From a virus: a stretch of DNA of 64,000 bases. The notes under the pieces are model-generated. The model did no database searches. It was not told the DNA's origin and saw only the letters and a list, made by a program, of their open reading frames with translations. The stretch is taken from positions 1 through 64,000 of IMG/VR virus record IMGVR_UViG_3300027759_000056, one strand, 5' to 3'. How positions within the stretch are numbered: position 1 is the stretch's first letter; the number at the start of each line of letters is the position of its first letter. The translations under genes were made by a program, and so were the position numbers. This document shows, piece after piece, positions 10,974 to 62,203 of the stretch.

Positions 10974-12350
10974 ATGAAAGTAATTCTTACCGAATCTCAA
11001 ATTAATAGAATTTTAGAACAAAACAATGATTTGATTACAACAATCAAACAAATGGGTTTTGTTCCATCAGGAAATGCAATATTCAAACACAGTCAAAAAC
11101 CTGAATTAACTTTAACCTTAACTGGTGATTATATTATTGTAAAAGATAATGGTAAAGAAATTACAAAAATTAAAACAAGTGAAATTGAAGACTTGGAAGG
11201 TACCATTAAATCAACATCATTAAAAGAACAAGTTGCTCAAGGTGCTCAAGGTGACCCTTATGAATATAAAAAAGAAGGTGGGTATTACTATGCAAGGAAA
11301 AAAGGTTCCAAAAATTGGATACTAACACGAGGTAATATGGCTGATTCAATAGAAAAAAAAATATTTGCAAACAAACAACCAAAAAATCCAACTCAAGTAA
11401 ATCCAACTCAAGTAAATCCAACTCAAGTAAAAACTGAAAAAAAATATTGTCCAGCACATCCTCAAAGTGCCGATGTTAATCCAAACTTAGAAAAAAATTA
11501 TCAAACAGAAGCTGCAAAATTAATTGGTAAGGGCATCCCAACAAGAACTAGTTGTGAGATTTCATTTATTAAATTAAGACCAAAATTTTCTAATAAATCT
11601 TTTTTTGTATTTGATGGTTCTCAAAACTTAATTTATTTATTTGATAAGACAGGAAATTTTGTTGCTAAAAGTTATGTATTGGATGGTGCTGATGCACAAT
11701 CACAAGACACCAAAAAAATTGCACAAGCTCTTTGGACATGGCAACAACAAGTTGAAAGTTTGGGTTTCAAATGGGACCCAAAAATGCAAAAATATTTAGA
11801 TAAGACTAATAAAAATAGAACTTATAGTAATGATTTAATTTACAATAGTATTGATAAAAATGACACTAGATTTTTTCCTAAAGGTGTGTATTCAATTGTT
11901 GGGTTATCAACAGATAAAGAATATGCTGGTGGACAAGATAATTTATTCAGAGTTGAAACATTAGATGGTAAAAAAATTGCCCAAGCAATTCACGGTTTTT
12001 ATAACGAAGCACCAAGAGTTGCTGCGTTAGAAGAATTAAAAACCAAAATGGGTACAAGTGCATCTCCAAAATCAGCATCAGTTCCACAAGAATTTTTGAG
12101 TATGGTTGAGAAATATAAATCCACTCAAAAATTTAATAAATCTTATGGTTGTGTTAATCTACCAACAGATTTCTTAAAAATTGCTAAACCATACGCTGTG
12201 GGAGCAATGTTATTTGTTATTGGTGAAACTCAAAATAATTATTTGGTTCAAAACGCCAACACATTCTTCCAAAAAATGGGTAACGCTGAAAATTGTTCAG
12301 ACCCAACATCTTTAGGTACGGAACTTCCAAATTTGGAAATGACCGCTTAA
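10974..12350 (+). CDS. L,D-transpeptidase (YkuD)-like domain protein with LTESQ leader
   Basis: AIHG...SYGCVNL catalytic motif. Confidence 0.65.
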   Translation: MKVILTESQINRILEQNNDLITTIKQMGFVPSGNAIFKHSQKPELTLTLTGDYIIVKDNGKEITKIKTSEIEDLEGTIKSTSLKEQVAQGAQGDPYEYKKEGGYYYARKKGSKNWILTRGNMADSIEKKIFANKQPKNPTQVNPTQVNPTQVKTEKKYCPAHPQSADVNPNLEKNYQTEAAKLIGKGIPTRTSCEISFIKLRPKFSNKSFFVFDGSQNLIYLFDKTGNFVAKSYVLDGADAQSQDTKKIAQALWTWQQQVESLGFKWDPKMQKYLDKTNKNRTYSNDLIYNSIDKNDTRFFPKGVYSIVGLSTDKEYAGGQDNLFRVETLDGKKIAQAIHGFYNEAPRVAALEELKTKMGTSASPKSASVPQEFLSMVEKYKSTQKFNKSYGCVNLPTDFLKIAKPYAVGAMLFVIGETQNNYLVQNANTFFQKMGNAENCSDPTSLGTELPNLEMTA

Positions 12351-12390: not shown

Positions 12391-13020
12391 ATGAGAAATC
12401 TTTTATTTGTTTTAATGGTTTTATTCATTTCTTCTTGTGAAAAACAAGAGACTTCAGTAGTTGTAAAACCAAAGGTTGTTAAATCTGTTAAAACCCAAAA
12501 AACTATATTTGTTGTTCCTATGGGTAAAACCAGTAATTTTGATGTTAACTACATTGTTAATGAACTAAAACAATTTTACAAATGTGATGTTAAAGTATTA
12601 CCTAAAGTTGAAACACCTGCAATTGCCAAAGTAAATGGTTTGAAAAGATATAGAGCTATCGATATTTTGAATTTCTTATCTACTAAGTACAAAAAGAATA
12701 ACGGAAAAGTATTGGCACTTACTGATGGTGATATTTGTACTGATAGAGAACTTAACGGTATTGTATATAAAAATTGGGGTGTATTTGGATTGGGTAGATT
12801 AAACGATAAACCTTGTGTTATCTCAACTAACAGATTCAAAACAAACTATTACGACAGGTTGTCAAAAGTAACCATCCATGAAATTGGTCATACCTTGGGT
12901 TTAAGTCACTGTGATAACGATAAGAATTGTCTTATGAGTGATGCTAAAGGTAAAGGTGGACAAGTAGATTCTGAGAAAAAATGGATGTGTGATAAATGTA
13001 GAAAAAAAATAAAATTATAG
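12391..13020 (+). CDS. archaemetzincin-like Zn metalloprotease (M54), lipoprotein
   Basis: HEIGHTLGLSHC..CLM..CxxC; lipobox. Confidence 0.85.
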   Translation: MRNLLFVLMVLFISSCEKQETSVVVKPKVVKSVKTQKTIFVVPMGKTSNFDVNYIVNELKQFYKCDVKVLPKVETPAIAKVNGLKRYRAIDILNFLSTKYKKNNGKVLALTDGDICTDRELNGIVYKNWGVFGLGRLNDKPCVISTNRFKTNYYDRLSKVTIHEIGHTLGLSHCDNDKNCLMSDAKGKGGQVDSEKKWMCDKCRKKIKL

Positions 13021-15958: not shown

Positions 15959-16735
15959 TTAAGAATAATTTGAACCCATTATATCACTTACTTTTTTAGC
16001 CCCTTGAGCAATTAAACTATTACCACTATTTTTTCTAGCGTCAATAGAAATTTTACTTAATTCTTTTGGGTTAGTAATACCGCTTTTAACGGAATCATTA
16101 ATTTTCTTGGCAAATTTTTGAAACCAACCTGGACCATTCCAAGTGGCATAAACAAAATTAGATAATAAACCACTATTTTTATTAACTATTTCACGAGATT
16201 CAGGAGATAAATATTTTTGAGCAAATTCATCATAAAATGGTTTCATCATTTTACTAACCAATGATTTTAATCTTGGTTCCAATGAACCTCCTTTGTAATT
16301 CCATTTCCAATTTGATTTGGCATTCTCCTTATCAATTATATCCCAAAATTCTTTACCTGCGGAACTTGTATTGATTTTTCCACCATTCTTCCTGTCAATA
16401 CCAAACATTGTTTCACCTGAATTACCATAACGAGAATCTTTAACTCTACCGTCTTTTAACATATTAGGATGGAAATAACCACCTTCAAGTTTATCTATAA
16501 TATTTTTGACAATATTATCAAAGTTTGTATCACCACCTGAAACACTTGATGATGAATCTGTATTTGTTGTCTCACCATTATCATCATCATTATTAAGAGT
16601 TGCATCCATAAATGATTTGAGTATTGCTTGACCCATAGCGTCTTTTATTCCACCAAAAACATTCTGAGCCAACTGCTCATTAACCATCATTAATTCTTTT
16701 TGGCGATGAATTTCCGCTAACAATCTTTTATTCAT
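15959..16735 (-). CDS. lysozyme-like glycoside hydrolase (GH108-like)
   Basis: LEGGY...GETMFGID motif. Confidence 0.6.
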   Translation of the reverse strand: MNKRLLAEIHRQKELMMVNEQLAQNVFGGIKDAMGQAILKSFMDATLNNDDDNGETTNTDSSSSVSGGDTNFDNIVKNIIDKLEGGYFHPNMLKDGRVKDSRYGNSGETMFGIDRKNGGKINTSSAGKEFWDIIDKENAKSNWKWNYKGGSLEPRLKSLVSKMMKPFYDEFAQKYLSPESREIVNKNSGLLSNFVYATWNGPGWFQKFAKKINDSVKSGITNPKELSKISIDARKNSGNSLIAQGAKKVSDIMGSNYS

Positions 16736-16749
16736 AAATTATAAATATC

Positions 16750-17088
16750 TTAAATTGCGAAACTTTCCCCACAACCACAGGTACGAGACGCATTTGGATT
16801 TATAAATTGAAAACCTTTTCCATTTAACCCATCCGAAAAATCTAATTCGGTTCCAAATAAATAAAGAAAAGATTTTTTATCTATTGCAATTTTTATTGAA
16901 TTATCTTCAACAATATTATCACCTTCTTGTGGTATGTTGTCAAAACCTAATTCATATGATAAACCTGAACAACCACCACCTTTAACACCCACTCTCAAAA
17001 AATAAGTTTCCCTATCCAACTTTTGTTCTTCCAAAAGTTCTTGTAATCTTATTCTTGCTTTTTCTGATACCGTAATAATTTCCATCAT
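16750..17088 (-). CDS. iscA: Fe-S cluster assembly A-type carrier (HesB/IscA)
   Basis: GGGCSG and [12 protein letters not shown]. Confidence 0.93.
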
Positions 17089-42662: not shown

Positions 42663-43916
42663 ATGGAAAACATTTATGATATGAAATTATCCCAAAATGG
42701 TAAATATATTTTAGCCAATGGAATGGTGTATGACATATCATTAGACGAATCAGTTTCAATAAACGACTTATCGTTTGGTTTTTGGTTTGATTTTATTAAA
42801 GAAAATTCAATATCATCTTTATTCAATAAAACAAAAACAACATTAGAAATTCAAAAAATTTTAAGAGAAACGGTTTATAATATTTCTGAAATATTTGATA
42901 CTGATAGTAAATTGAATGTTTTGATTGAATATGAAACAAAATTTGGAAATAATTTATTGATTGAGAGTGAGGAAAATTTATCATCAAAAATCAATGAAAC
43001 TTTTGATTTTGTAAAATCAAAATTATTATCGTATGGAATTTTAAGTGAACAAAGTTGGTGGGATAAGACTAAAAATTTTGTATCATCAACCGCAAAAAAA
43101 GTTAGTGATAAAATTTCAGGGGCTTGGAATTGGGTAAAAGAAAAAGGTGCTGGATGGTTCTTTGAGAACTTAAGAAGTGCATTGTTTAGTTGGGGTGGAG
43201 CTGCGGTTCAGGCGTTTTTATCTTCAGGGGCAACTGCTGGAATTGGAAATGTTGTTTTGGTTATAGTTTGGGGAGCAATGTTGGCTTATGACCTTTATTT
43301 GGCTGTAGGTGGAAATGTTAATTGGGTAAATTTAATTATTGATATAGTTGGTATTGCTACCACAGGACCTGGAGCCAAGATAGTTGGTGAGGCATTCAAA
43401 AAATTAGGTATTTTTGGAAAAAAACTTCCTTTAAATTCTATATTAGAAACCCTTTCAAAATCATCAATTGGTAAATGGTTTGTTGGTATTATTGAAATGG
43501 CGGTAAAAGGACTTTCAGGAATTGCTAATACATTAACTAAAGGAATTACGTGGTTAGCTGAAAAATTTGGAATTAATTTTACAAATAGTTCAGGTCAATT
43601 ACAAACATTTTTGAATAAAGCGGTTACTGATATATCATCAAGTCCTACTCTTAAAACAGTCGCGGGTAAAGTTGGACAAAAAGCCGGTAAGACATTAGTA
43701 AAAAATGTTGCATCTAAAGTTGGTAAAGCAGCATCAACAAAAGTTGGTCAAACTGCGGTGGCTGGAGGAGCCACATATGGAATAAACAAAAAAACGGGAG
43801 CAAACACTGAGGTACTTGGTGGAGCATTCAAAGATAAACCAAATCAAGAACAAGAACTATACGCATCTCTTGGTAATGTAAAATCAAGTGATTTTGTAGA
43901 TGGAGTTGATTTTTAA
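42663..43916 (+). CDS. large protein with hydrophobic hairpin (possible ejection protein)
   Basis: 417 aa; LxE sites; TM-like segments. Confidence 0.7.
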   Translation: MENIYDMKLSQNGKYILANGMVYDISLDESVSINDLSFGFWFDFIKENSISSLFNKTKTTLEIQKILRETVYNISEIFDTDSKLNVLIEYETKFGNNLLIESEENLSSKINETFDFVKSKLLSYGILSEQSWWDKTKNFVSSTAKKVSDKISGAWNWVKEKGAGWFFENLRSALFSWGGAAVQAFLSSGATAGIGNVVLVIVWGAMLAYDLYLAVGGNVNWVNLIIDIVGIATTGPGAKIVGEAFKKLGIFGKKLPLNSILETLSKSSIGKWFVGIIEMAVKGLSGIANTLTKGITWLAEKFGINFTNSSGQLQTFLNKAVTDISSSPTLKTVAGKVGQKAGKTLVKNVASKVGKAASTKVGQTAVAGGATYGINKKTGANTEVLGGAFKDKPNQEQELYASLGNVKSSDFVDGVDF

Positions 43917-51973: not shown

Positions 51974-52210
51974 ATGATTACAATGGAAGACTTAAAAGAT
52001 TTTGACTTCACAAATGATAGTAAGGTTGAATTTATGACCAAACCAGGTTTTGTAGAAAAACGTATTCAACAAATGATTCAAATTGGTGCGAATGAAGAGT
52101 ATGAAAAATACAGTGAAGGAATGAGTGATGATGACATTGCAAAATGGAAAGAAGGGTTTGTAGTCGGAGCAAACTGGTTATTAAAAAATAAAAACGAAAA
52201 AAATATTTGA
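51974..52210 (+). CDS. hypothetical protein
   Basis: start refined to MITMED. Confidence 0.55.
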   Translation: MITMEDLKDFDFTNDSKVEFMTKPGFVEKRIQQMIQIGANEEYEKYSEGMSDDDIAKWKEGFVVGANWLLKNKNEKNI

Positions 52211-52259
52211 CATATCAATAAACTTTTGTATCTTTGTACCATATTTAATACTAAACACA

Positions 52260-52355
52260 ATGAAACTCGTAAATAAACAAATCGTGAAACATGTCATTCA
52301 ATTCTGTTCGAATTGGTATCTTCGCGTATTCGTAAGTTCGGGTGTTTTAAGTTAA
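52260..52355 (+). CDS. leader peptide of tRNA array 1 (MKLVNKQIVKHVIQFCSNWYLRVFVSSGVLS)
   Basis: 31-codon ORF after TTTG..TATCTTTG promoter; control window matches the array; overlaps the antiterminator. Confidence 0.8.
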   Translation: MKLVNKQIVKHVIQFCSNWYLRVFVSSGVLS

Positions 52356-52407
52356 CACATAGTAGCCTTAAAAAGGAAACCCGAACTCACAAGGTTCGGG
52401 TTTTTTT
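52335..52407 (+). terminator. attenuator 1: terminator 52377..52407 and alternative antiterminator AGTTCGGGT (52335-43) : ACCCGAACT (52379-87)
   Basis: mutually exclusive pairings read directly from sequence. Confidence 0.85.
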
Positions 52408-52413
52408 GTTTTT

Positions 52414-52435
52414 AAGTTCTTTGACATGTTGGTAA
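52414..52435 (+). promoter_or_regulatory. rrn-type boxA-like element
   Basis: AAGTTCTTTGACatgTTGGTAA; repeated before array 2. Confidence 0.7.
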
Positions 52436-58122: not shown

Positions 58123-58150
58123 TTCTTATTAGTGTCTTATACTTTTGATA

Positions 58151-59419
58151 ATGGAAAAATTATCAAATGTAGGGAACAATATTGTGGGCTCTGAAATTAT
58201 TAAAATCTCACAACAAATCAAAGAAATTGCTAAAACAAAATCAGTATCTAACCTAACCATAGGTGACTTTAATTCCAAACTATGGCCAATACCCTCAAAA
58301 TTAAGAGAACACATTCAAGATGCGTATGAGTGGGATTTAACCAACTATCCAAACTCACAAGGAGAACTTGAATTAAGAGAATCCGTATCCAAACACATTA
58401 AACATCAGTTCAATGTTGATTATTCACCTGAAGAAATATTAATTGGTGGTGGAGTTCGTCCATTAATTTATACGGTTTATAAAGCCACGGTAAATCCAAA
58501 TGAAGAGGTGATTTATCCTGTACCATCTTGGAATAATAACCACTATTGTTTTTTACATAACGCAAAAAAAGAAGAAATTGAATGTACACCTGAAAATTCA
58601 TTTTTCCCAACCGTTGAAGATGTTGACGGCAGAATAAGTGATAAAACATCATTGGTTTGTATTTGTTCACCGCAAAATCCAACAGGTCGTGTAATTGACC
58701 CCGAAGTTCTGAAAGGTATTTGTGAGTTGATTGTGAGAGAAAATAAAATCAGGTCAACACAAGTAGGTTCAAGACCATTGTATTTGTTCTTTGACCAGAT
58801 TTATTCTGACATCACCAAAGAAGGTTTGTTTATCCACCCATTAACTTTATGTCCTGAAATCAGAGATTATTTGATTTGTGCTGATGGTATTTCAAAGTCA
58901 TTAAACGCAACTGGTGTTCGTGTTGGTTGGTTGTTTGGTCCAAAAGATATTATTGGAAAGATGACCGAAGTTTTGTCTCACATTGGAGCATGGGCTCCAA
59001 AACCTGAACAACGAGCATTGGATGCGTACATCAGAGAAGATTATGAAGATTACATTTCTCACATTAACTATGTAACAAAATCGTACGAATTTATATCAGA
59101 TAAAATATGTGGTAAGTTGGAAGAATTGAAAAACAAAGGTCATAATGTTGATTACCAAAAACCTGATGGTGGAATTTATATTTCGGTTTATTTGGGTTAT
59201 GTTCATTCATTTCCAACAACTGAAGAGTATATTTCGTTCTTAATTAATACCTGTGGGTTGGGAATTGTTCCGTTTGAATATTTTGGTTCAAAGAGTAACA
59301 AAGGATGGTTTAGAATATCAATTGGTAATGTTGCCGAGTTAAATTTGGACTCAATTATTAAAACAATTGAAAATTCTGTACAAAAATCAGTAAGTTATGT
59401 AAATTCTTTAGCATTTTAA
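58151..59419 (+). CDS. PLP-dependent aminotransferase class I/II
   Basis: SPQNPTG, DQIY, GISKS..TGVRVGW, FRIS. Confidence 0.9.
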   Translation: MEKLSNVGNNIVGSEIIKISQQIKEIAKTKSVSNLTIGDFNSKLWPIPSKLREHIQDAYEWDLTNYPNSQGELELRESVSKHIKHQFNVDYSPEEILIGGGVRPLIYTVYKATVNPNEEVIYPVPSWNNNHYCFLHNAKKEEIECTPENSFFPTVEDVDGRISDKTSLVCICSPQNPTGRVIDPEVLKGICELIVRENKIRSTQVGSRPLYLFFDQIYSDITKEGLFIHPLTLCPEIRDYLICADGISKSLNATGVRVGWLFGPKDIIGKMTEVLSHIGAWAPKPEQRALDAYIREDYEDYISHINYVTKSYEFISDKICGKLEELKNKGHNVDYQKPDGGIYISVYLGYVHSFPTTEEYISFLINTCGLGIVPFEYFGSKSNKGWFRISIGNVAELNLDSIIKTIENSVQKSVSYVNSLAF

Positions 59420-59476
59420 TTGACACTTTTCAAAAGTTTGATATATTTAATAAGAAATTAAATAATAATACATTCA

Positions 59477-59545
59477 ATGATTACCATCAACATATTCGGC
59501 ACACCAGCAACAGAGGCTGATACTTCCAAAGTGGAGATGGGATAA
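59477..59545 (+). CDS. leader peptide of tRNA array 2 (MITINIFGTPATEADTSKVEMG)
   Basis: 22-codon ORF; control codons match the array; overlaps the antiterminator. Confidence 0.75.
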   Translation: MITINIFGTPATEADTSKVEMG

Positions 59546-59598
59546 TATTGTAAAAAAATATCTTACAAAAACCCATCTCAAAAGGATGGGTTTTTTTT
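59534..59598 (+). terminator. attenuator 2: terminator 59567..59598 and antiterminator GAGATGGG (59534-41) : CCCATCTC (59572-79)
   Basis: mutually exclusive pairings read directly from sequence. Confidence 0.82.
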
Positions 59599-59665
59599 GT
59601 GTTTGTTTGGCAGTATCAAAAAAATGTATTAACTTTGTAGTGTTGAAAAACACAACAGAACAAAA

Positions 59666-59687
59666 AAGTTCTTTGACGTATTGGTAA
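59666..59687 (+). promoter_or_regulatory. rrn-type boxA-like element
   Basis: AAGTTCTTTGACgtaTTGGTAA. Confidence 0.7.
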
Positions 59688-59696
59688 GAAAAAATT

Positions 59697-59768
59697 GCTC
59701 GGTTCATCTATCGGTTAGGATGCTAGGTTTTCATCCTAGAAAGAGGGGTTCGACTCCCCTACCGAGTA
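59697..59768 (+). tRNA. tRNA-Glu(TTC)
   Basis: CTAGG-TTTTCAT-CCTAG. Confidence 0.92.
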
Positions 59769-59777
59769 CAAATAAAT

Positions 59778-59852
59778 AGCGGGGTGGAGCAGAGGTAGCT
59801 TGCGAGGCTCATAACCTTGAGGTCACAGGTTCGAATCCTGTCCCCGCTACCA
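59778..59852 (+). tRNA. tRNA-Met(CAT), initiator-like body with A1:U72
   Basis: AGCGGGG acceptor; CGAGG-CTCATAA-CCTTG; CCA. Confidence 0.88.
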
Positions 59853-59860
59853 AAATAAAT

Positions 59861-59934
59861 CGCGAGTTGGTGTAATGGTAACATAATGGGCTCATAACCC
59901 ATAGTTCCGAGTTCGAGTCTCGGGTTCGCAACCA
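59861..59934 (+). tRNA. tRNA-fMet(CAT)
   Basis: C1:A72 mismatch; GGG/CCC anticodon stem; CCA. Confidence 0.9.
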
Positions 59935-59937
59935 ATG

Positions 59938-60148
59938 GATGTAACTTGGGTCGTGCCACATTGGCCACTTTTACATCAAGAGTCAGAAGGATTAGAGGTG
60001 GCCGTGACTACTCTGACTCGAATACAAAGTACCACGATGCTTACCGTAAGAACAGCACAGTGGTAGATAGAGTTAACGTGAATAACCCAAGGCATAAGCG
60101 TTAACAACCCCCAATAAGACTATTTGGCCAATAGAAACTGTTGGGGTT
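59938..60148 (+). ncRNA. unknown multi-hairpin RNA with loop-loop pairings
   Basis: five stems and two long-range complementarities. Confidence 0.6.
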
Positions 60149-60155
60149 ATTAAAA

Positions 60156-60227
60156 GCGAGTGTAGTATAAAGGCTATTACTCCAGCCTTCCAAGCTGGAT
60201 ATGCGAGTTCGATTCTCGCCACTCGCT
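60156..60227 (+). tRNA. tRNA-Gly(TCC)
   Basis: CCAGC-CTTCCAA-GCTGG; U73. Confidence 0.92.
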
Positions 60228-60230
60228 CAA

Positions 60231-60431
60231 AAAGAACCTTTTCTTACGGAAGTCCGATTAGCGCGGATGAAAGGAACCTTGACTTCACGGGAGTAGCTAC
60301 CCAATTGAAGCTTGAATGACTCAAGGTACTCTGTAATGGACCCTGCTCTATGGTGCACACATAACAGGTGATGGGGAACAAACCATCGGTAAAATCTAAA
60401 CCCACGGTGAGCGTGGAAGGAAAGTTTCTTT
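60231..60431 (+). ncRNA. unknown multibranch RNA of about 200 nt
   Basis: closing helix aaagaaccttttctt/aaggaaagtttcttt enclosing several hairpins. Confidence 0.55.
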
Positions 60432-60436
60432 TTTTT

Positions 60437-60511
60437 GCGGGAGTAGCTCAGGGGTAGAGCTTCAGTTTACCAAACTGAAAGTCGAAGGTTCGAATCCTTT
60501 TTCCCGCTCCA
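60437..60511 (+). tRNA. tRNA-Gly(ACC)
   Basis: GCGGGAG acceptor; TCAGT-TTACCAA-ACTGA; U73 plus CCA. Confidence 0.88.
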
Positions 60512-60579
60512 AATGTAAATCTTAAAAAGGGCCCTTCCGTGTTTATCACGGCTTGTTGGGCCCGGGTTTACTAACTTAC

Positions 60580-60651
60580 GGTCCTGTAGTTAATCGGCTA
60601 TAATATTGCCCTGTCACGGCAAAGTGCCGGGTTCGATTCCCGGTGGGACCG
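60580..60651 (+). tRNA. tRNA-Asp(GTC)
   Basis: TTGCC-CTGTCAC-GGCAA; G73. Confidence 0.92.
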
Positions 60652-60662
60652 CAAAAATAAAA

Positions 60663-60732
60663 GGGCCTGATGTCAACGGCAGACCGTTTGATTTGCAATC
60701 AGAACGTATGGGTTCGATTCCCACAGTGTCCA
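60663..60732 (+). tRNA. tRNA-Ala(TGC), atypical (bulged acceptor stem)
   Basis: G3:U70; TTTGA-TTTGCAA-TCAGA. Confidence 0.75.
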
Positions 60733-60741
60733 CAAACAAAT

Positions 60742-60817
60742 AGCGTAGTAGAGGAGTCAGGTTTATCTCATCTGCTTTGGGAGCAGAGGCACGCTGGTTC
60801 GAATCCAGTCTACGCTA
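60742..60817 (+). tRNA. tRNA-Pro(TGG)
   Basis: TCTGC-TTTGGGA-GCAGA. Confidence 0.9.
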
Positions 60818-60850
60818 CTAATTATAAAAAAAATTTACTATCTTTGTAAC

Positions 60851-61138
60851 ATGAAAAACATATTAAAAGACCCCCGATTTTATTTTTTCCTATGGATTGT
60901 TCTATCTATTATTCTTGCCATTACGTTAGGAGCTTGTAAACAGAAACCTTTGATTGAAAAAGGTGATGTAGTTGAAAAGTTCGTTATTGATTCAATGGTT
61001 CAATTGCCACCTCACAGCACAATTGAACTTGACAGGAAGTACAAGTATTTCATGTCAGACAGCAGTGAGTTTACTTCTTTGAAGAAATATAACATTGGTG
61101 ATACAATCACTTATGTTTACAAAAAACAAGGAAAGTAA
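60851..61138 (+). CDS. putative lipoprotein
   Basis: LGAC lipobox. Confidence 0.6.
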   Translation: MKNILKDPRFYFFLWIVLSIILAITLGACKQKPLIEKGDVVEKFVIDSMVQLPPHSTIELDRKYKYFMSDSSEFTSLKKYNIGDTITYVYKKQGK

Positions 61139-61157
61139 TATATATTAAAACATAAAT

Positions 61158-61234
61158 GCCTGAATAGCTTTAATTGGTAGAGCACCTGACTTGTAATCAG
61201 GGGGTTGGCGGTTCGAGTCCGTCTTCAGGCTCCA
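61158..61234 (+). tRNA. tRNA-Thr(TGT)
   Basis: CCTGA-CTTGTAA-TCAGG; CCA. Confidence 0.93.
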
Positions 61235-61246
61235 AACACAATAATC

Positions 61247-61432
61247 ATGGACCCCAAGACTCAAATGACGCAGGAAGATTTTTTAACTGAATTGACTGAA
61301 TTAAGTCAGTCATTTGGATTGTATGGTGAAAATGACAACTTTGGTGTTGATGGAGTTTACATACATACCCAACCAGAAATGTACATATGTCCGTGGGATA
61401 ATACTCAAGGGGATTGTACTCATTTCAACTAA
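61247..61432 (+). CDS. small hypothetical protein
   Basis: start refined to MDPKTQ after the tRNA. Confidence 0.5.
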   Translation: MDPKTQMTQEDFLTELTELSQSFGLYGENDNFGVDGVYIHTQPEMYICPWDNTQGDCTHFN

Positions 61433-61437
61433 TATTT

Positions 61438-61511
61438 GGACGGGTAGCTCAACAGGTTAGAGCAGGATGCTTATATCATCAAGGTTGGGGGTTCAAGTCC
61501 CTTCTCGTCTA
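61438..61511 (+). tRNA. tRNA-Ile(TAT)
   Basis: GATG-CTTATAT-CATC. Confidence 0.85.
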
Positions 61512-61525
61512 CTAAAAATTTAATT

Positions 61526-62098
61526 ATGAGCAACGAATATAATCAATGGTATTGGAAACTTTATAGATGGTTCAGATGGGACGCTAAACATCTTCATCGT
61601 GATATTGCACAGGGTTTTAGAAACCTATGGAAATGGTTACCAATAATTTGGAAAGACCGTGATTGGGATGACCATTTTATTTTTGAAGTTTTGAAATTCA
61701 AAATCAAGAATACCGCCAAGTATACAGAAAAAAAACAAAGGTTTGTTGGTTGGGAAAAAGAAGTTAGATATATGAGAATATGTGAAACTTTAATTGATAG
61801 AATTCAAAATGAGTATTATCAGATGGAGTATCAAGATTATCATGATTTTGATATTAGTACGGTACCAACAGAAGATGGTTTGTATGAAGTTGTCTTTGAT
61901 GTTAAACGTGATGATACTGATGAATTTGTTAAAAAATACCCACACGCTCTAAGAAAAGCAAAAAAAGACCCAAGATTTAAGAGTTATTTTAAGAATGAAA
62001 GAAATGGTTATCTTGCTGTGGGTATGATTAGACACGAAAAAGCAAGAAAACTGTTATTCAAAATTTTGGAACAAAGAATTGAGCGTTGGTGGGATTGA
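61526..62098 (+). CDS. conserved phage hypothetical protein
   Basis: W.PIIWKDRDWD...WWD. Confidence 0.7.
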   Translation: MSNEYNQWYWKLYRWFRWDAKHLHRDIAQGFRNLWKWLPIIWKDRDWDDHFIFEVLKFKIKNTAKYTEKKQRFVGWEKEVRYMRICETLIDRIQNEYYQMEYQDYHDFDISTVPTEDGLYEVVFDVKRDDTDEFVKKYPHALRKAKKDPRFKSYFKNERNGYLAVGMIRHEKARKLLFKILEQRIERWWD

Positions 62099-62126
62099 TT
62101 TTTTTCACTATATTTGTATAACAAAT

Positions 62127-62200
62127 GGACCTTTAGCTCAGTTGGTCAGAGCGGCTGACTCATAATCAGTAGGTCGTAGGTTCAAGCCCTACAGGGTCCA
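62127..62200 (+). tRNA. tRNA(CAT), probably Ile2 (lysidine type)
   Basis: GGACCTT acceptor; GCTGA-CTCATAA-TCAGT. Confidence 0.85.
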
Positions 62201-62203
62201 CAA

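Follow-up and report, generated by a model that had tools for sequence, protein, structure and literature searches.

The leader region in front of tRNA array 2

The window analysed here, that is, the whole stretch of 64,000 nucleotides (nt) from positions 1 to 64,000 of the IMG/VR virus record IMGVR_UViG_3300027759_000056, carries two arrays of transfer RNA (tRNA) genes. Between an aminotransferase gene and array 2 lies a region with a short open reading frame (ORF), named leader 2, and an intrinsic terminator. An earlier note, made from the sequence alone, had read this region as a transcription attenuator whose leader lists the amino acids of the tRNAs behind it, with an equivalent in front of array 1. 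The features of the region are the following; related sequences are named by their handles (L001, G001 and so on).

58145-59419, + strand: class I/II aminotransferase gene (PF00155, E = 1e-38), directly 5' of leader 2 and conserved in 41 related viral contigs
59420-59449, + strand: putative promoter P1, with -33 box TTGACA (59420-59425) and -7 box TATATTTA (59442-59449), right after the aminotransferase stop codon
59477-59545, + strand: leader 2 ORF, 22 codons, MITINIFGTPATEADTSKVEMG, with ATG at 59477 and TAA at 59543-59545; homologous ORFs are found in L001, L003, L036, L015 and G001
59492-59524, + strand: the 'menu', codons 6-16 of leader 2, ATA TTC GGC ACA CCA GCA ACA GAG GCT GAT ACT
59534-59541, + strand: 5' strand of the antiterminator, GAGATGGG, within the last three sense codons GAG ATG GGA and ending 2 nt 5' of the stop codon
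59548-59568, + strand: bridging hairpin inside the antiterminator, TTGTAA (59548-59553) with TTACAA (59563-59568)
59567-59603, + strand: intrinsic terminator 2, a 12-bp stem (59567-59578 with 59584-59595), loop CAAAA and a T-tract
59606-59637, + strand: promoter P2, TTTG-N20-TAACTTTG, between terminator 2 and array 2
59668-59687, + strand: conserved motif GTTCTTTGACGTATTGGTAA, about 30 nt 5' of the first tRNA of array 2; the same motif lies at 52416-52435, before array 1
59697-62201, + strand: tRNA array 2, with Glu, Met, Met, Gly(TCC), Gly(ACC), Asp, (Ala, marginal), Pro, Thr, Ile(TAT) and Met/Ile2(CAT)

Start, stop and translation of the ORF were read from the sequence and agree with the earlier note. 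So do the menu codons, which specify Ile (AUA), Gly, Thr, Pro, Ala, Glu and Asp, with Phe as the sole outsider; this core is near-invariant among close relatives. Upstream, P1 scores as TTGACA-16-TATATT at 11 of 12 positions, its -7 box being imperfect, and both boxes are invariant in five relatives and in G001.

The proposed pairing was also found as described: GAGATGGG, at the end of the ORF, is complementary to CCCATCTC (59572-59579) in the 5' arm of the terminator. As CCCATCTC serves as the 3' strand of the antiterminator and is thus common to both structures, terminator and antiterminator are mutually exclusive. Their predicted stabilities are equal, -14.7 kcal/mol each. When the RNA was masked as by a ribosome at the stop codon, the terminator alone remained in the fold, and with a ribosome placed at codon 6 (ATA) the minimum-energy fold retained the antiterminator. 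The ttgtaa/ttacaa bridge fared less well: its halves are complementary in the window, but outside it they persist only in L001 and L003 (66.7% paired as aligned in the relatives), so that it is not a conserved feature.

The region has a short start-to-stop ORF in the 5' leader, downstream of the conserved P1; an intrinsic terminator between this ORF and the tRNAs of array 2; an antiterminator that excludes the terminator and whose 5' strand can be masked by a ribosome at the ORF end; and control codons that match the genes presumed to be regulated, although, unlike in classical members of the attenuator class, these do not form runs of a single codon. Each of the eight amino acids carried by the tRNAs of array 2 (E, M, G, D, A, P, T and I) occurs within the 21 residues that follow Met1, and 76% of the residues belong to this set. 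Among the 454 ATG-ORFs of 15-50 amino acids in the window, leader 2 alone both includes every one of the eight and reaches 76% in-set residues; random peptides of phage proteome composition equal it at P = 5e-4.

A sister device stands in front of array 1:

52206-52410, + strand: sister device, with promoter TTTGAC..TATCTTTG, leader ORF 52260-52355, antiterminator AGTTCGGGT and terminator 52373-52407
52260-52355, + strand: leader 1 ORF, peptide MKLVNKQIVKHVIQFCSNWYLRVFVSSGVLS

All 13 isotypes of array 1 are present in leader 1, where 29 of 30 residues fall within the set (P < 5e-6). The predicted stability is -18.6 kcal/mol for the terminator and -17.2 kcal/mol for the antiterminator, and terminators 1 and 2 both rank in the top three terminator-like sites by strength in the 46-64 kb region. 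No promoter was found between terminator 1 and tRNA-Phe (52444), which starts 41 nt after the terminator stem. Leaders 1 and 2 are unrelated in sequence and share the same geometry, in keeping with the internal replication that the earlier note had claimed. The partition of amino acids between the leaders as between the arrays was likewise recovered, leader 2 holding all 8 of its set and leader 1 all 13.

The motif GTTCTTTGAC(A/G)T(A/G)TTGGTAA occurs only twice in the 112-kb record, once at the head of each array, and it takes this position in L001, L003, L015 and L036 as well as in lineage B (see below). We considered it as a promoter and rejected this, its spacing to any -7-like box being unsuitable; GTTCTTTGAC..TTGGTAA could be a processing or binding site.

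Leaders and arrays in related phages

DNA searches of the GenBank phage collection for close relatives returned tRNA matches only, and with the aminotransferase protein as query every match in that collection was below 30% identity. Relatives were therefore taken from IMG/VR, where the same protein retrieved 41 loci of 51-98% identity, among which the tRNA arrays differ in arrangement. These loci were scanned for an ATG-ORF combined with a terminator and a copy of the terminator 3' arm near the ORF end. With antiterminators of at least 7 nt and T-runs excluded, every match lay directly 5' of a tRNA array, and the loci without tRNAs gave zero matches. The leaders found form several sequence-unrelated families, with unrelated terminators too, and each lists the tRNAs behind it.

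The 36 nt around each stop codon were matched with the terminator 5' arm, random 36-mers of the same locus serving as the null. In 18 of 19 leaders the duplex was stronger than at least 95% of the random 36-mers; for leader 2 it reached -15.1 kcal/mol, compared to -4.2 +/- 2.8 for the null. From the stop codon to the terminator 5' arm the distance was 21-52 nt, with 17 of the 19 leaders falling within 21-34 nt. The comparative alignment that the earlier note had asked for showed the ORF, the antiterminator pairing and the terminator to be conserved in relatives: across the six sequences of the leader-2 family (alignment A4), 97.8% of the cells of the outer antiterminator helix and 97.2% of those of the terminator were paired. 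In L015, a T to C change in the column of the shared strand is matched by A to G changes in both of its partners, in the antiterminator and in the terminator 3' arm, a three-way compensation.

Leader content was then set beside array content. In lineage B (L004, L012), as compared with lineage A, to which the window belongs, Asn and Leu have switched into the 'small' block, the 'large' one has gained Glu and Met, and the leaders follow: in L004, MKNLNTLLATLAPTNGGGRDLCSRVQI precedes Pro-Asn-Gly-Gly-Asp-Thr-Ala-Leu-Arg-Leu, and a second leader, MRTTMVHISSFKQQEICSWYRYVENCSSENKVK, precedes Val-Glu-Phe-His-Ser-Ile-Lys-Cys-Trp-Tyr-Gln-Arg-Met-Ile-Ser. Array 1 includes a tRNA-Ser(TGA) in the window and in L036, whose leader cores contain S (FCSNWY), but not in L001, L003 and L015, whose cores read FCQNWY; L001 is 98% identical to the window in the flanking protein. 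Array 2 of L015 has no tRNA-Pro, no homologue of which was found in the 61.8-kb contig of this locus, and its leader core is GTETGADT, without P, in place of GTPATE(A/G)DT. A third array in L014 holds Pro and has its own leader, MKPINKNMISKRQPQISICWYPRITHSS... (three P), and P is missing from the L014 counterpart of the leaders that contain it in L004, L012 and L017. The leader-2 homologue of G001, MKTLHIILIGGTDRTEATTPMEMV, has an AGA codon, and its array holds Arg(TCT). These switches (Ser, Pro, Arg and Asn/Leu/Glu/Met) are separate events.

Overall, 24 leader-array pairs could be compared; they include homologous leaders, which are not independent, so that the following figures overstate the number of events. 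All array amino acids were present in the leader in 16 of the 24 pairs, and in 7 others Met alone was missing and is supplied by the start codon; residues exclusive to the leader's own array numbered 364, compared to 109 exclusive to other arrays of the same genome. When arrays were shuffled among the 24 leaders, the observed match was never reached (0/20,000; 1.71 compared to 1.18 +/- 0.07, about 7 standard deviations). Behind the aminotransferase gene of lineage B there is neither a leader nor tRNAs; the leader travels with the array and not with this upstream gene.

The device was also found in a cultured phage of another genus, Cellulophaga phage phi4:1 (KC821632.1, 146 kb, genus Lightbulbvirus, host C. 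baltica), which has two such leaders, at 87065-87133 and 88025-88108. The first, MKIQRLHLQELEQPIISGGTGV, lies behind a TAtgTTTG promoter box and precedes Pro-Glu-Gln-His-Leu-Leu-Arg. The second, the GTG-initiated (M)QLTKTGITVIDKTKGARAYLGDTVIG, lies behind a repeat of the same promoter and precedes Ala-Lys-Ile-Gly-Met-Asp-Thr-Val-Arg-Met-Tyr. Both are followed by a terminator and have an antiterminator that uses the terminator 5' arm in the nascent RNA. In the phi4:1 annotation, the (M)QLTKTGITVIDKTKGARAYLGDTVIG ORF is part of gp075, a 'hypothetical protein', and the MKIQRLHLQELEQPIISGGTGV ORF is unannotated.

Two other cultured phages gave no such leader. In Flavobacterium phage vB_FspM_immuto_13-6C (4 tRNAs), a 51-amino-acid ORF before Ser-Glu-Gln has neither a terminator nor a match. 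Among the small ORFs of the tRNA region of phage T5 (L049, NC_005859), no clear short leader with such a terminator was seen. Two T5 ORFs, neither of the short-leader-plus-terminator form, may be mentioned on their own account: T5.072 (11618-11893, - strand), a 91-amino-acid ORF 5' of promoter P14a and of tRNA-Tyr-Glu-Trp-Phe, contains SWEGWEGEIEWLYFYDVE, a segment in which precisely W, E, Y and F abound, and T5.070, before tRNA-Cys, has 7 Cys in 42 amino acids and may be merely a zinc ribbon.

Array 2, its surroundings and transcripts

The related contigs measure 295-311 kb, so that the phage of the window, whose record has 111,976 bp and a CheckV completeness of 37%, is a jumbo phage of about 300 kb. 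It is a giant freshwater phage of Bacteroidota-like host type; Bacteroidota-type promoters (TTTG-N15-21-TAnnTTTG) are enriched in the intergenic regions of the record, with 16 matches compared to 7.7 expected. The record holds 29 tRNAs called by ARAGORN and one more seen by Rfam only. ARAGORN at 85% thresholds gave many doubtful extra tRNAs, which were kept only if supported by Rfam or by array context.

The tRNAs of array 2 are interspersed with structured RNAs and small ORFs. Most of the tRNA list in the earlier note was recovered by ARAGORN, which called Glu(TTC), Met(CAT) twice, Gly(TCC), Gly(ACC), Asp(GTC), Pro(TGG), Thr(TGT), Ile(TAT) and a Met(CAT) at 62127. Two entries stood less firmly: Ala is marginal (see the last section), and the label Ile2(CAT) for the tRNA at 62127, which ARAGORN calls Met and whose identity to Ile tRNAs is 69-73%, could not be confirmed. 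The tRNA-Gly at 60437-60511 (+ strand) has the unusual anticodon ACC, which is GCC in L003, L015 and L036. Between the two tRNA-Gly genes lies a freshwater-1 RNA (Rfam RF02979) at 60332-60394 (+ strand; 73.8 bits for a cut-off of 72), also present in L003 at 12823-12885. A stretch of about 210 nt between tRNA-Met and tRNA-Gly(TCC) (59938-60148, + strand) is free of tRNAs.

Lake-water metatranscriptomes were available as four RNA runs, in the form of contigs only, from which transcript ends, strand and level cannot be read and in which DNA carry-over is possible. The bin 59786-60117 was by far the deepest in two of them (2124 and 1229), a depth to which tRNA-Met of other organisms may contribute, and one RNA contig connects 60022 to 60152, skipping 129 nt. 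Contig X1 (59518-59769, exact) crosses terminator 2 into tRNA-Glu, and contig X3 (52261-52446) reaches from leader 1 across its terminator to the 5' end of tRNA-Phe; neither was counted as evidence.

The aminotransferase gene (58145-59419) is an auxiliary metabolic gene that adjoins the tRNA region. In relatives, a transfer-messenger RNA (tmRNA; Rfam RF00023, 55-90 bits) lies on the opposite strand about 5 kb past the tRNA region: at 16676-17061 (- strand) in L001, at 16011-16407 (- strand) in L004, and also in L012, L026, L017, L028, L022 and L009. The one in L001 was reported by Rfam and not called by ARAGORN. Its position in relatives predicts a tmRNA of the window's phage just beyond 64000. 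ARAGORN further called a CTA-anticodon tRNA (amber-reading, labelled Pyl) beside array 1 in L003 (6634-6705, + strand), a TTA-anticodon ('Stop') tRNA in L037 and, at relaxed thresholds, one in the window (42752-42832, - strand); these are possible suppressor tRNAs.

Proposed attenuation, rival explanations and meaning

We consider it probable, from the sequence comparisons, that the array 2 leader acts as a transcription attenuator of the ribosome-mediated (leader-peptide) kind, by which expression of the array is coupled to the decoding speed of the matching codons. This reading, which was that of the earlier note, is supported by the recurrence of the device with unrelated leaders, by its presence in a cultured phage of another genus, and by a composition that tracks the arrays. 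The phage would then probably raise its output of array 2 tRNAs when the leader codons are read slowly.

We infer that the leader is translated, in which direction the switch works and which signal it answers, as follows. Transcription would start from P1 (59420-59449) and the 22-codon leader would be translated. If all codons were read fast, the ribosome would arrive at the stop codon (59543) and cover GAGATGGG (59534-59541); CCCATCTC would then pair with the downstream GGATGGG, the terminator would form, and the transcript would end near 59600. If one or more of the tRNAs for Ile-AUA, Gly, Thr, Pro, Ala, Glu and Asp were scarce, the ribosome would be delayed in the menu (59492-59524), and the free GAGATGGG would pair with CCCATCTC as soon as the latter was made, so that the antiterminator, transcribed first, would pre-empt the terminator. 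RNA polymerase would then continue into the tRNA genes: a stall would mean read-through, and the outcome would be a negative feedback on tRNA supply. The trigger is likely to be the depletion, turnover or cleavage of host tRNAs in infection.

Several observations weigh against this reading. Translation of the leader is deduced, and Bacteroidota-type mRNAs have no Shine-Dalgarno signals by which to judge it. The ribosome-free nascent RNA likewise folds as the antiterminator, so that the default state would differ from that of trp. Covariation in the leader-2 family is weak, with one event in six sequences, equalled by 139 of 500 shuffles. The tRNA-Ala(TGC) at 60663-60732 (+ strand) was found by Rfam only, at 29.5 bits for a cut-off of 29, and was missed by ARAGORN even at 85% thresholds; read by eye, it is degenerate, with a mismatched acceptor stem in which G3:U70 is kept. 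A TTC (Phe) codon is conserved in leader 2 although array 2 has no tRNA-Phe, and the first five codons as well as TCC-AAA-GTG are outside the array 2 set; the latter three may be a spacer between menu and antiterminator. Among relatives, ATA is retained in the L003 leader although Ile(TAT) sits elsewhere, N, T, A and L persist in the L017 leader in front of a reduced array that lacks those tRNAs, and the G001 leader has P though tRNA-Pro belongs to the next array.

The match also does not extend to codons. Leader codons are decodable by phage anticodons in 81-87% of cases, compared to 87% in phage genes overall, and a matching at the codon level was rejected, as exact matches made up 47-52% in leaders and 54.5% in phage genes. 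Codon choice in the leaders is thus no closer to the anticodons than that in genes, and the signal would be at the amino-acid level only. Finally, each amino acid has only one to three codons in the leader, where classical attenuators have runs of the control codon, so that the device may respond poorly to a shortage of one tRNA alone. With so few codons for each, the leader would probably integrate the transit time across its whole menu rather than report a single tRNA.

A further point against is P2, which lets array 2 be transcribed while bypassing the attenuator. The earlier note had raised this as a caveat, and it was borne out: the TTTG..TAACTTTG site at 59606-59637 is a perfect match to the Bacteroidota consensus and is conserved in 5 of 5 aligned lineage-A sequences. 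Since P2 stands between terminator and array, the attenuator can control only transcription arriving from upstream, and attenuation of array 2 most likely governs an additional, P1- or upstream-driven tier of transcription.

Three other explanations were weighed. The one that survives best, though improbable, keeps the same cis element and changes the signal, which would be amino-acid supply (tRNA charging), as in the thr or ilv leaders. Any slow decoding gives the same stall, and the architecture cannot separate uncharged from missing tRNA; moreover, the Rfam model of the enterobacterial Thr operon leader (Thr_leader, RF00506) aligns full-length to 59470-59600, albeit at 26.1 bits (E = 0.005) for a gathering threshold of 55, so that the region is not a member of that family. 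However, extra tRNA cannot relieve amino-acid starvation, which makes selection for an array-tracking leader hard to explain, and the genes that vary together with the leader encode tRNAs rather than biosynthetic enzymes. For these two reasons we find it likely that the signal is the supply of functional tRNA of the block.

Less probable still is a device that is real but minor for array 2, in which P2 would drive the tRNAs while leader and terminator would mainly end or insulate the aminotransferase transcript. The perfect, conserved consensus of P2 and the imperfect -7 box of P1 (TATATTTA) speak for this, as do the boxes analogous to P2 (TAtcTTTG) that are also found 3' of the lineage-B terminators. 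An insulator, however, needs no ORF, no antiterminator and no peptide that tracks array content across rearrangements, and array 1 carries the same device without a P2. That a chance ORF lies beside an ordinary terminator, or a small protein gene with a function of its own unrelated to attenuation, we regard as very improbable: short ORFs are indeed plentiful in AT-rich DNA (263 of at least 20 amino acids in 18 kb), and the composition of leader 2 alone (P ~5e-4) is not overwhelming after multiple testing, but chance does not sit with the recurrence with unrelated sequences, the constant geometry, the 0/20,000 permutations and the three-way compensatory change, and a micropeptide function would not predict residue changes upon movement of tRNA genes.

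The leader-peptide attenuator favoured here can be placed among known systems. Attenuators of the enterobacteria include trp, his, leu and pheA as well as multivalent ones, thr with Thr and Ile codons and ilvGMEDA with Ile, Leu and Val codons. Like the thr and ilvGMEDA leaders, the phage device has a short leader, presumably translated, with control codons, an intrinsic terminator and a strand-sharing antiterminator within reach of a ribosome at the ORF end. It differs from them in that it would regulate tRNAs and not biosynthetic enzymes; in having no sequence homology to them; in a menu that runs to 8 amino acids in leader 2 and to 13 in leader 1, mostly once or twice each, in place of runs of one to three amino acids; in a Bacteroidota-like host type without Shine-Dalgarno signals; and in the second promoter after terminator 2. 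The Rfam Phe_leader model (RF01859) scored 19.0 bits on the + strand, below its gathering threshold, so that here too there is an architectural likeness and not membership. The E. coli pheST attenuator, a leader-peptide control of phenylalanyl-tRNA synthetase with a run of Phe codons, is comparable in that a component of the translation apparatus, rather than biosynthesis, is attenuated; unlike the phage device, it concerns a synthetase gene, senses one amino acid, and is cellular rather than viral.

T-box riboswitches also set the expression of translation-related genes by a choice between terminator and antiterminator that depends on the state of a specific tRNA. Their binding of uncharged tRNA is direct, needs no translation and relies on a single specifier codon together with a conserved T-box sequence, whereas the phage codons stand in frame within an ATG-to-stop ORF. 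The T-box covariance model gave no match at the Rfam gathering threshold in the window, nor any with E <= 1 in 59400-59700, and no other curated Rfam family matched the leader 2 element. The closest case in print of a regulated accessory tRNA array, the trn operon of Anabaena sp. PCC 7120, is a long array induced by translational stress and controlled by the repressor TrcR on direct repeats at the promoter (PMC8421152, PMC10272220). It resembles the phage arrays in that its expression rises when translation is impaired. Control of trn is nevertheless at the promoter, and neither PMC8421152 nor PMC10272220 mentions attenuation or a leader peptide. No published description of leader-peptide attenuation of tRNA genes was found in full-text searches, which left most subscription journals outside their scope. 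Such attenuation is otherwise known from amino-acid operons and one synthetase operon, and the phage tRNA arrays would extend this trp-operon-style control.

On a broader scale, there is in our view about an even chance that Bacteroidota phages, from 300-kb freshwater jumbo phages to the 146-kb phi4:1, run their tRNA blocks as demand-controlled modules, a tRNA-supply homeostat based on trp-type attenuation. Every block would stand behind a leader naming its amino acids, and the ribosome transit time of that leader would be the sensor; the block would be switched on when host tRNAs of its set are depleted, turned over or cleaved, for instance by anticodon-nuclease defences, and off once they are restored, and selection would rewrite the menu whenever a tRNA gene changes block. 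As phi4:1 has a culturable host, the device is directly testable there. With leaders that track the moves of tRNA genes, nature provides a covariation experiment of a rare kind on a regulatory peptide. Current ideas on the near-complete tRNA sets of large phages invoke compensation for codon usage, the replacement of host tRNAs that have been degraded, and an escape from defences that target tRNAs. If the attenuation reading is true, the phage would measure decoding capacity directly and supply tRNAs on demand, and textbook attenuation would be extended to tRNA genes and to the sensing of up to 13 amino acids together.

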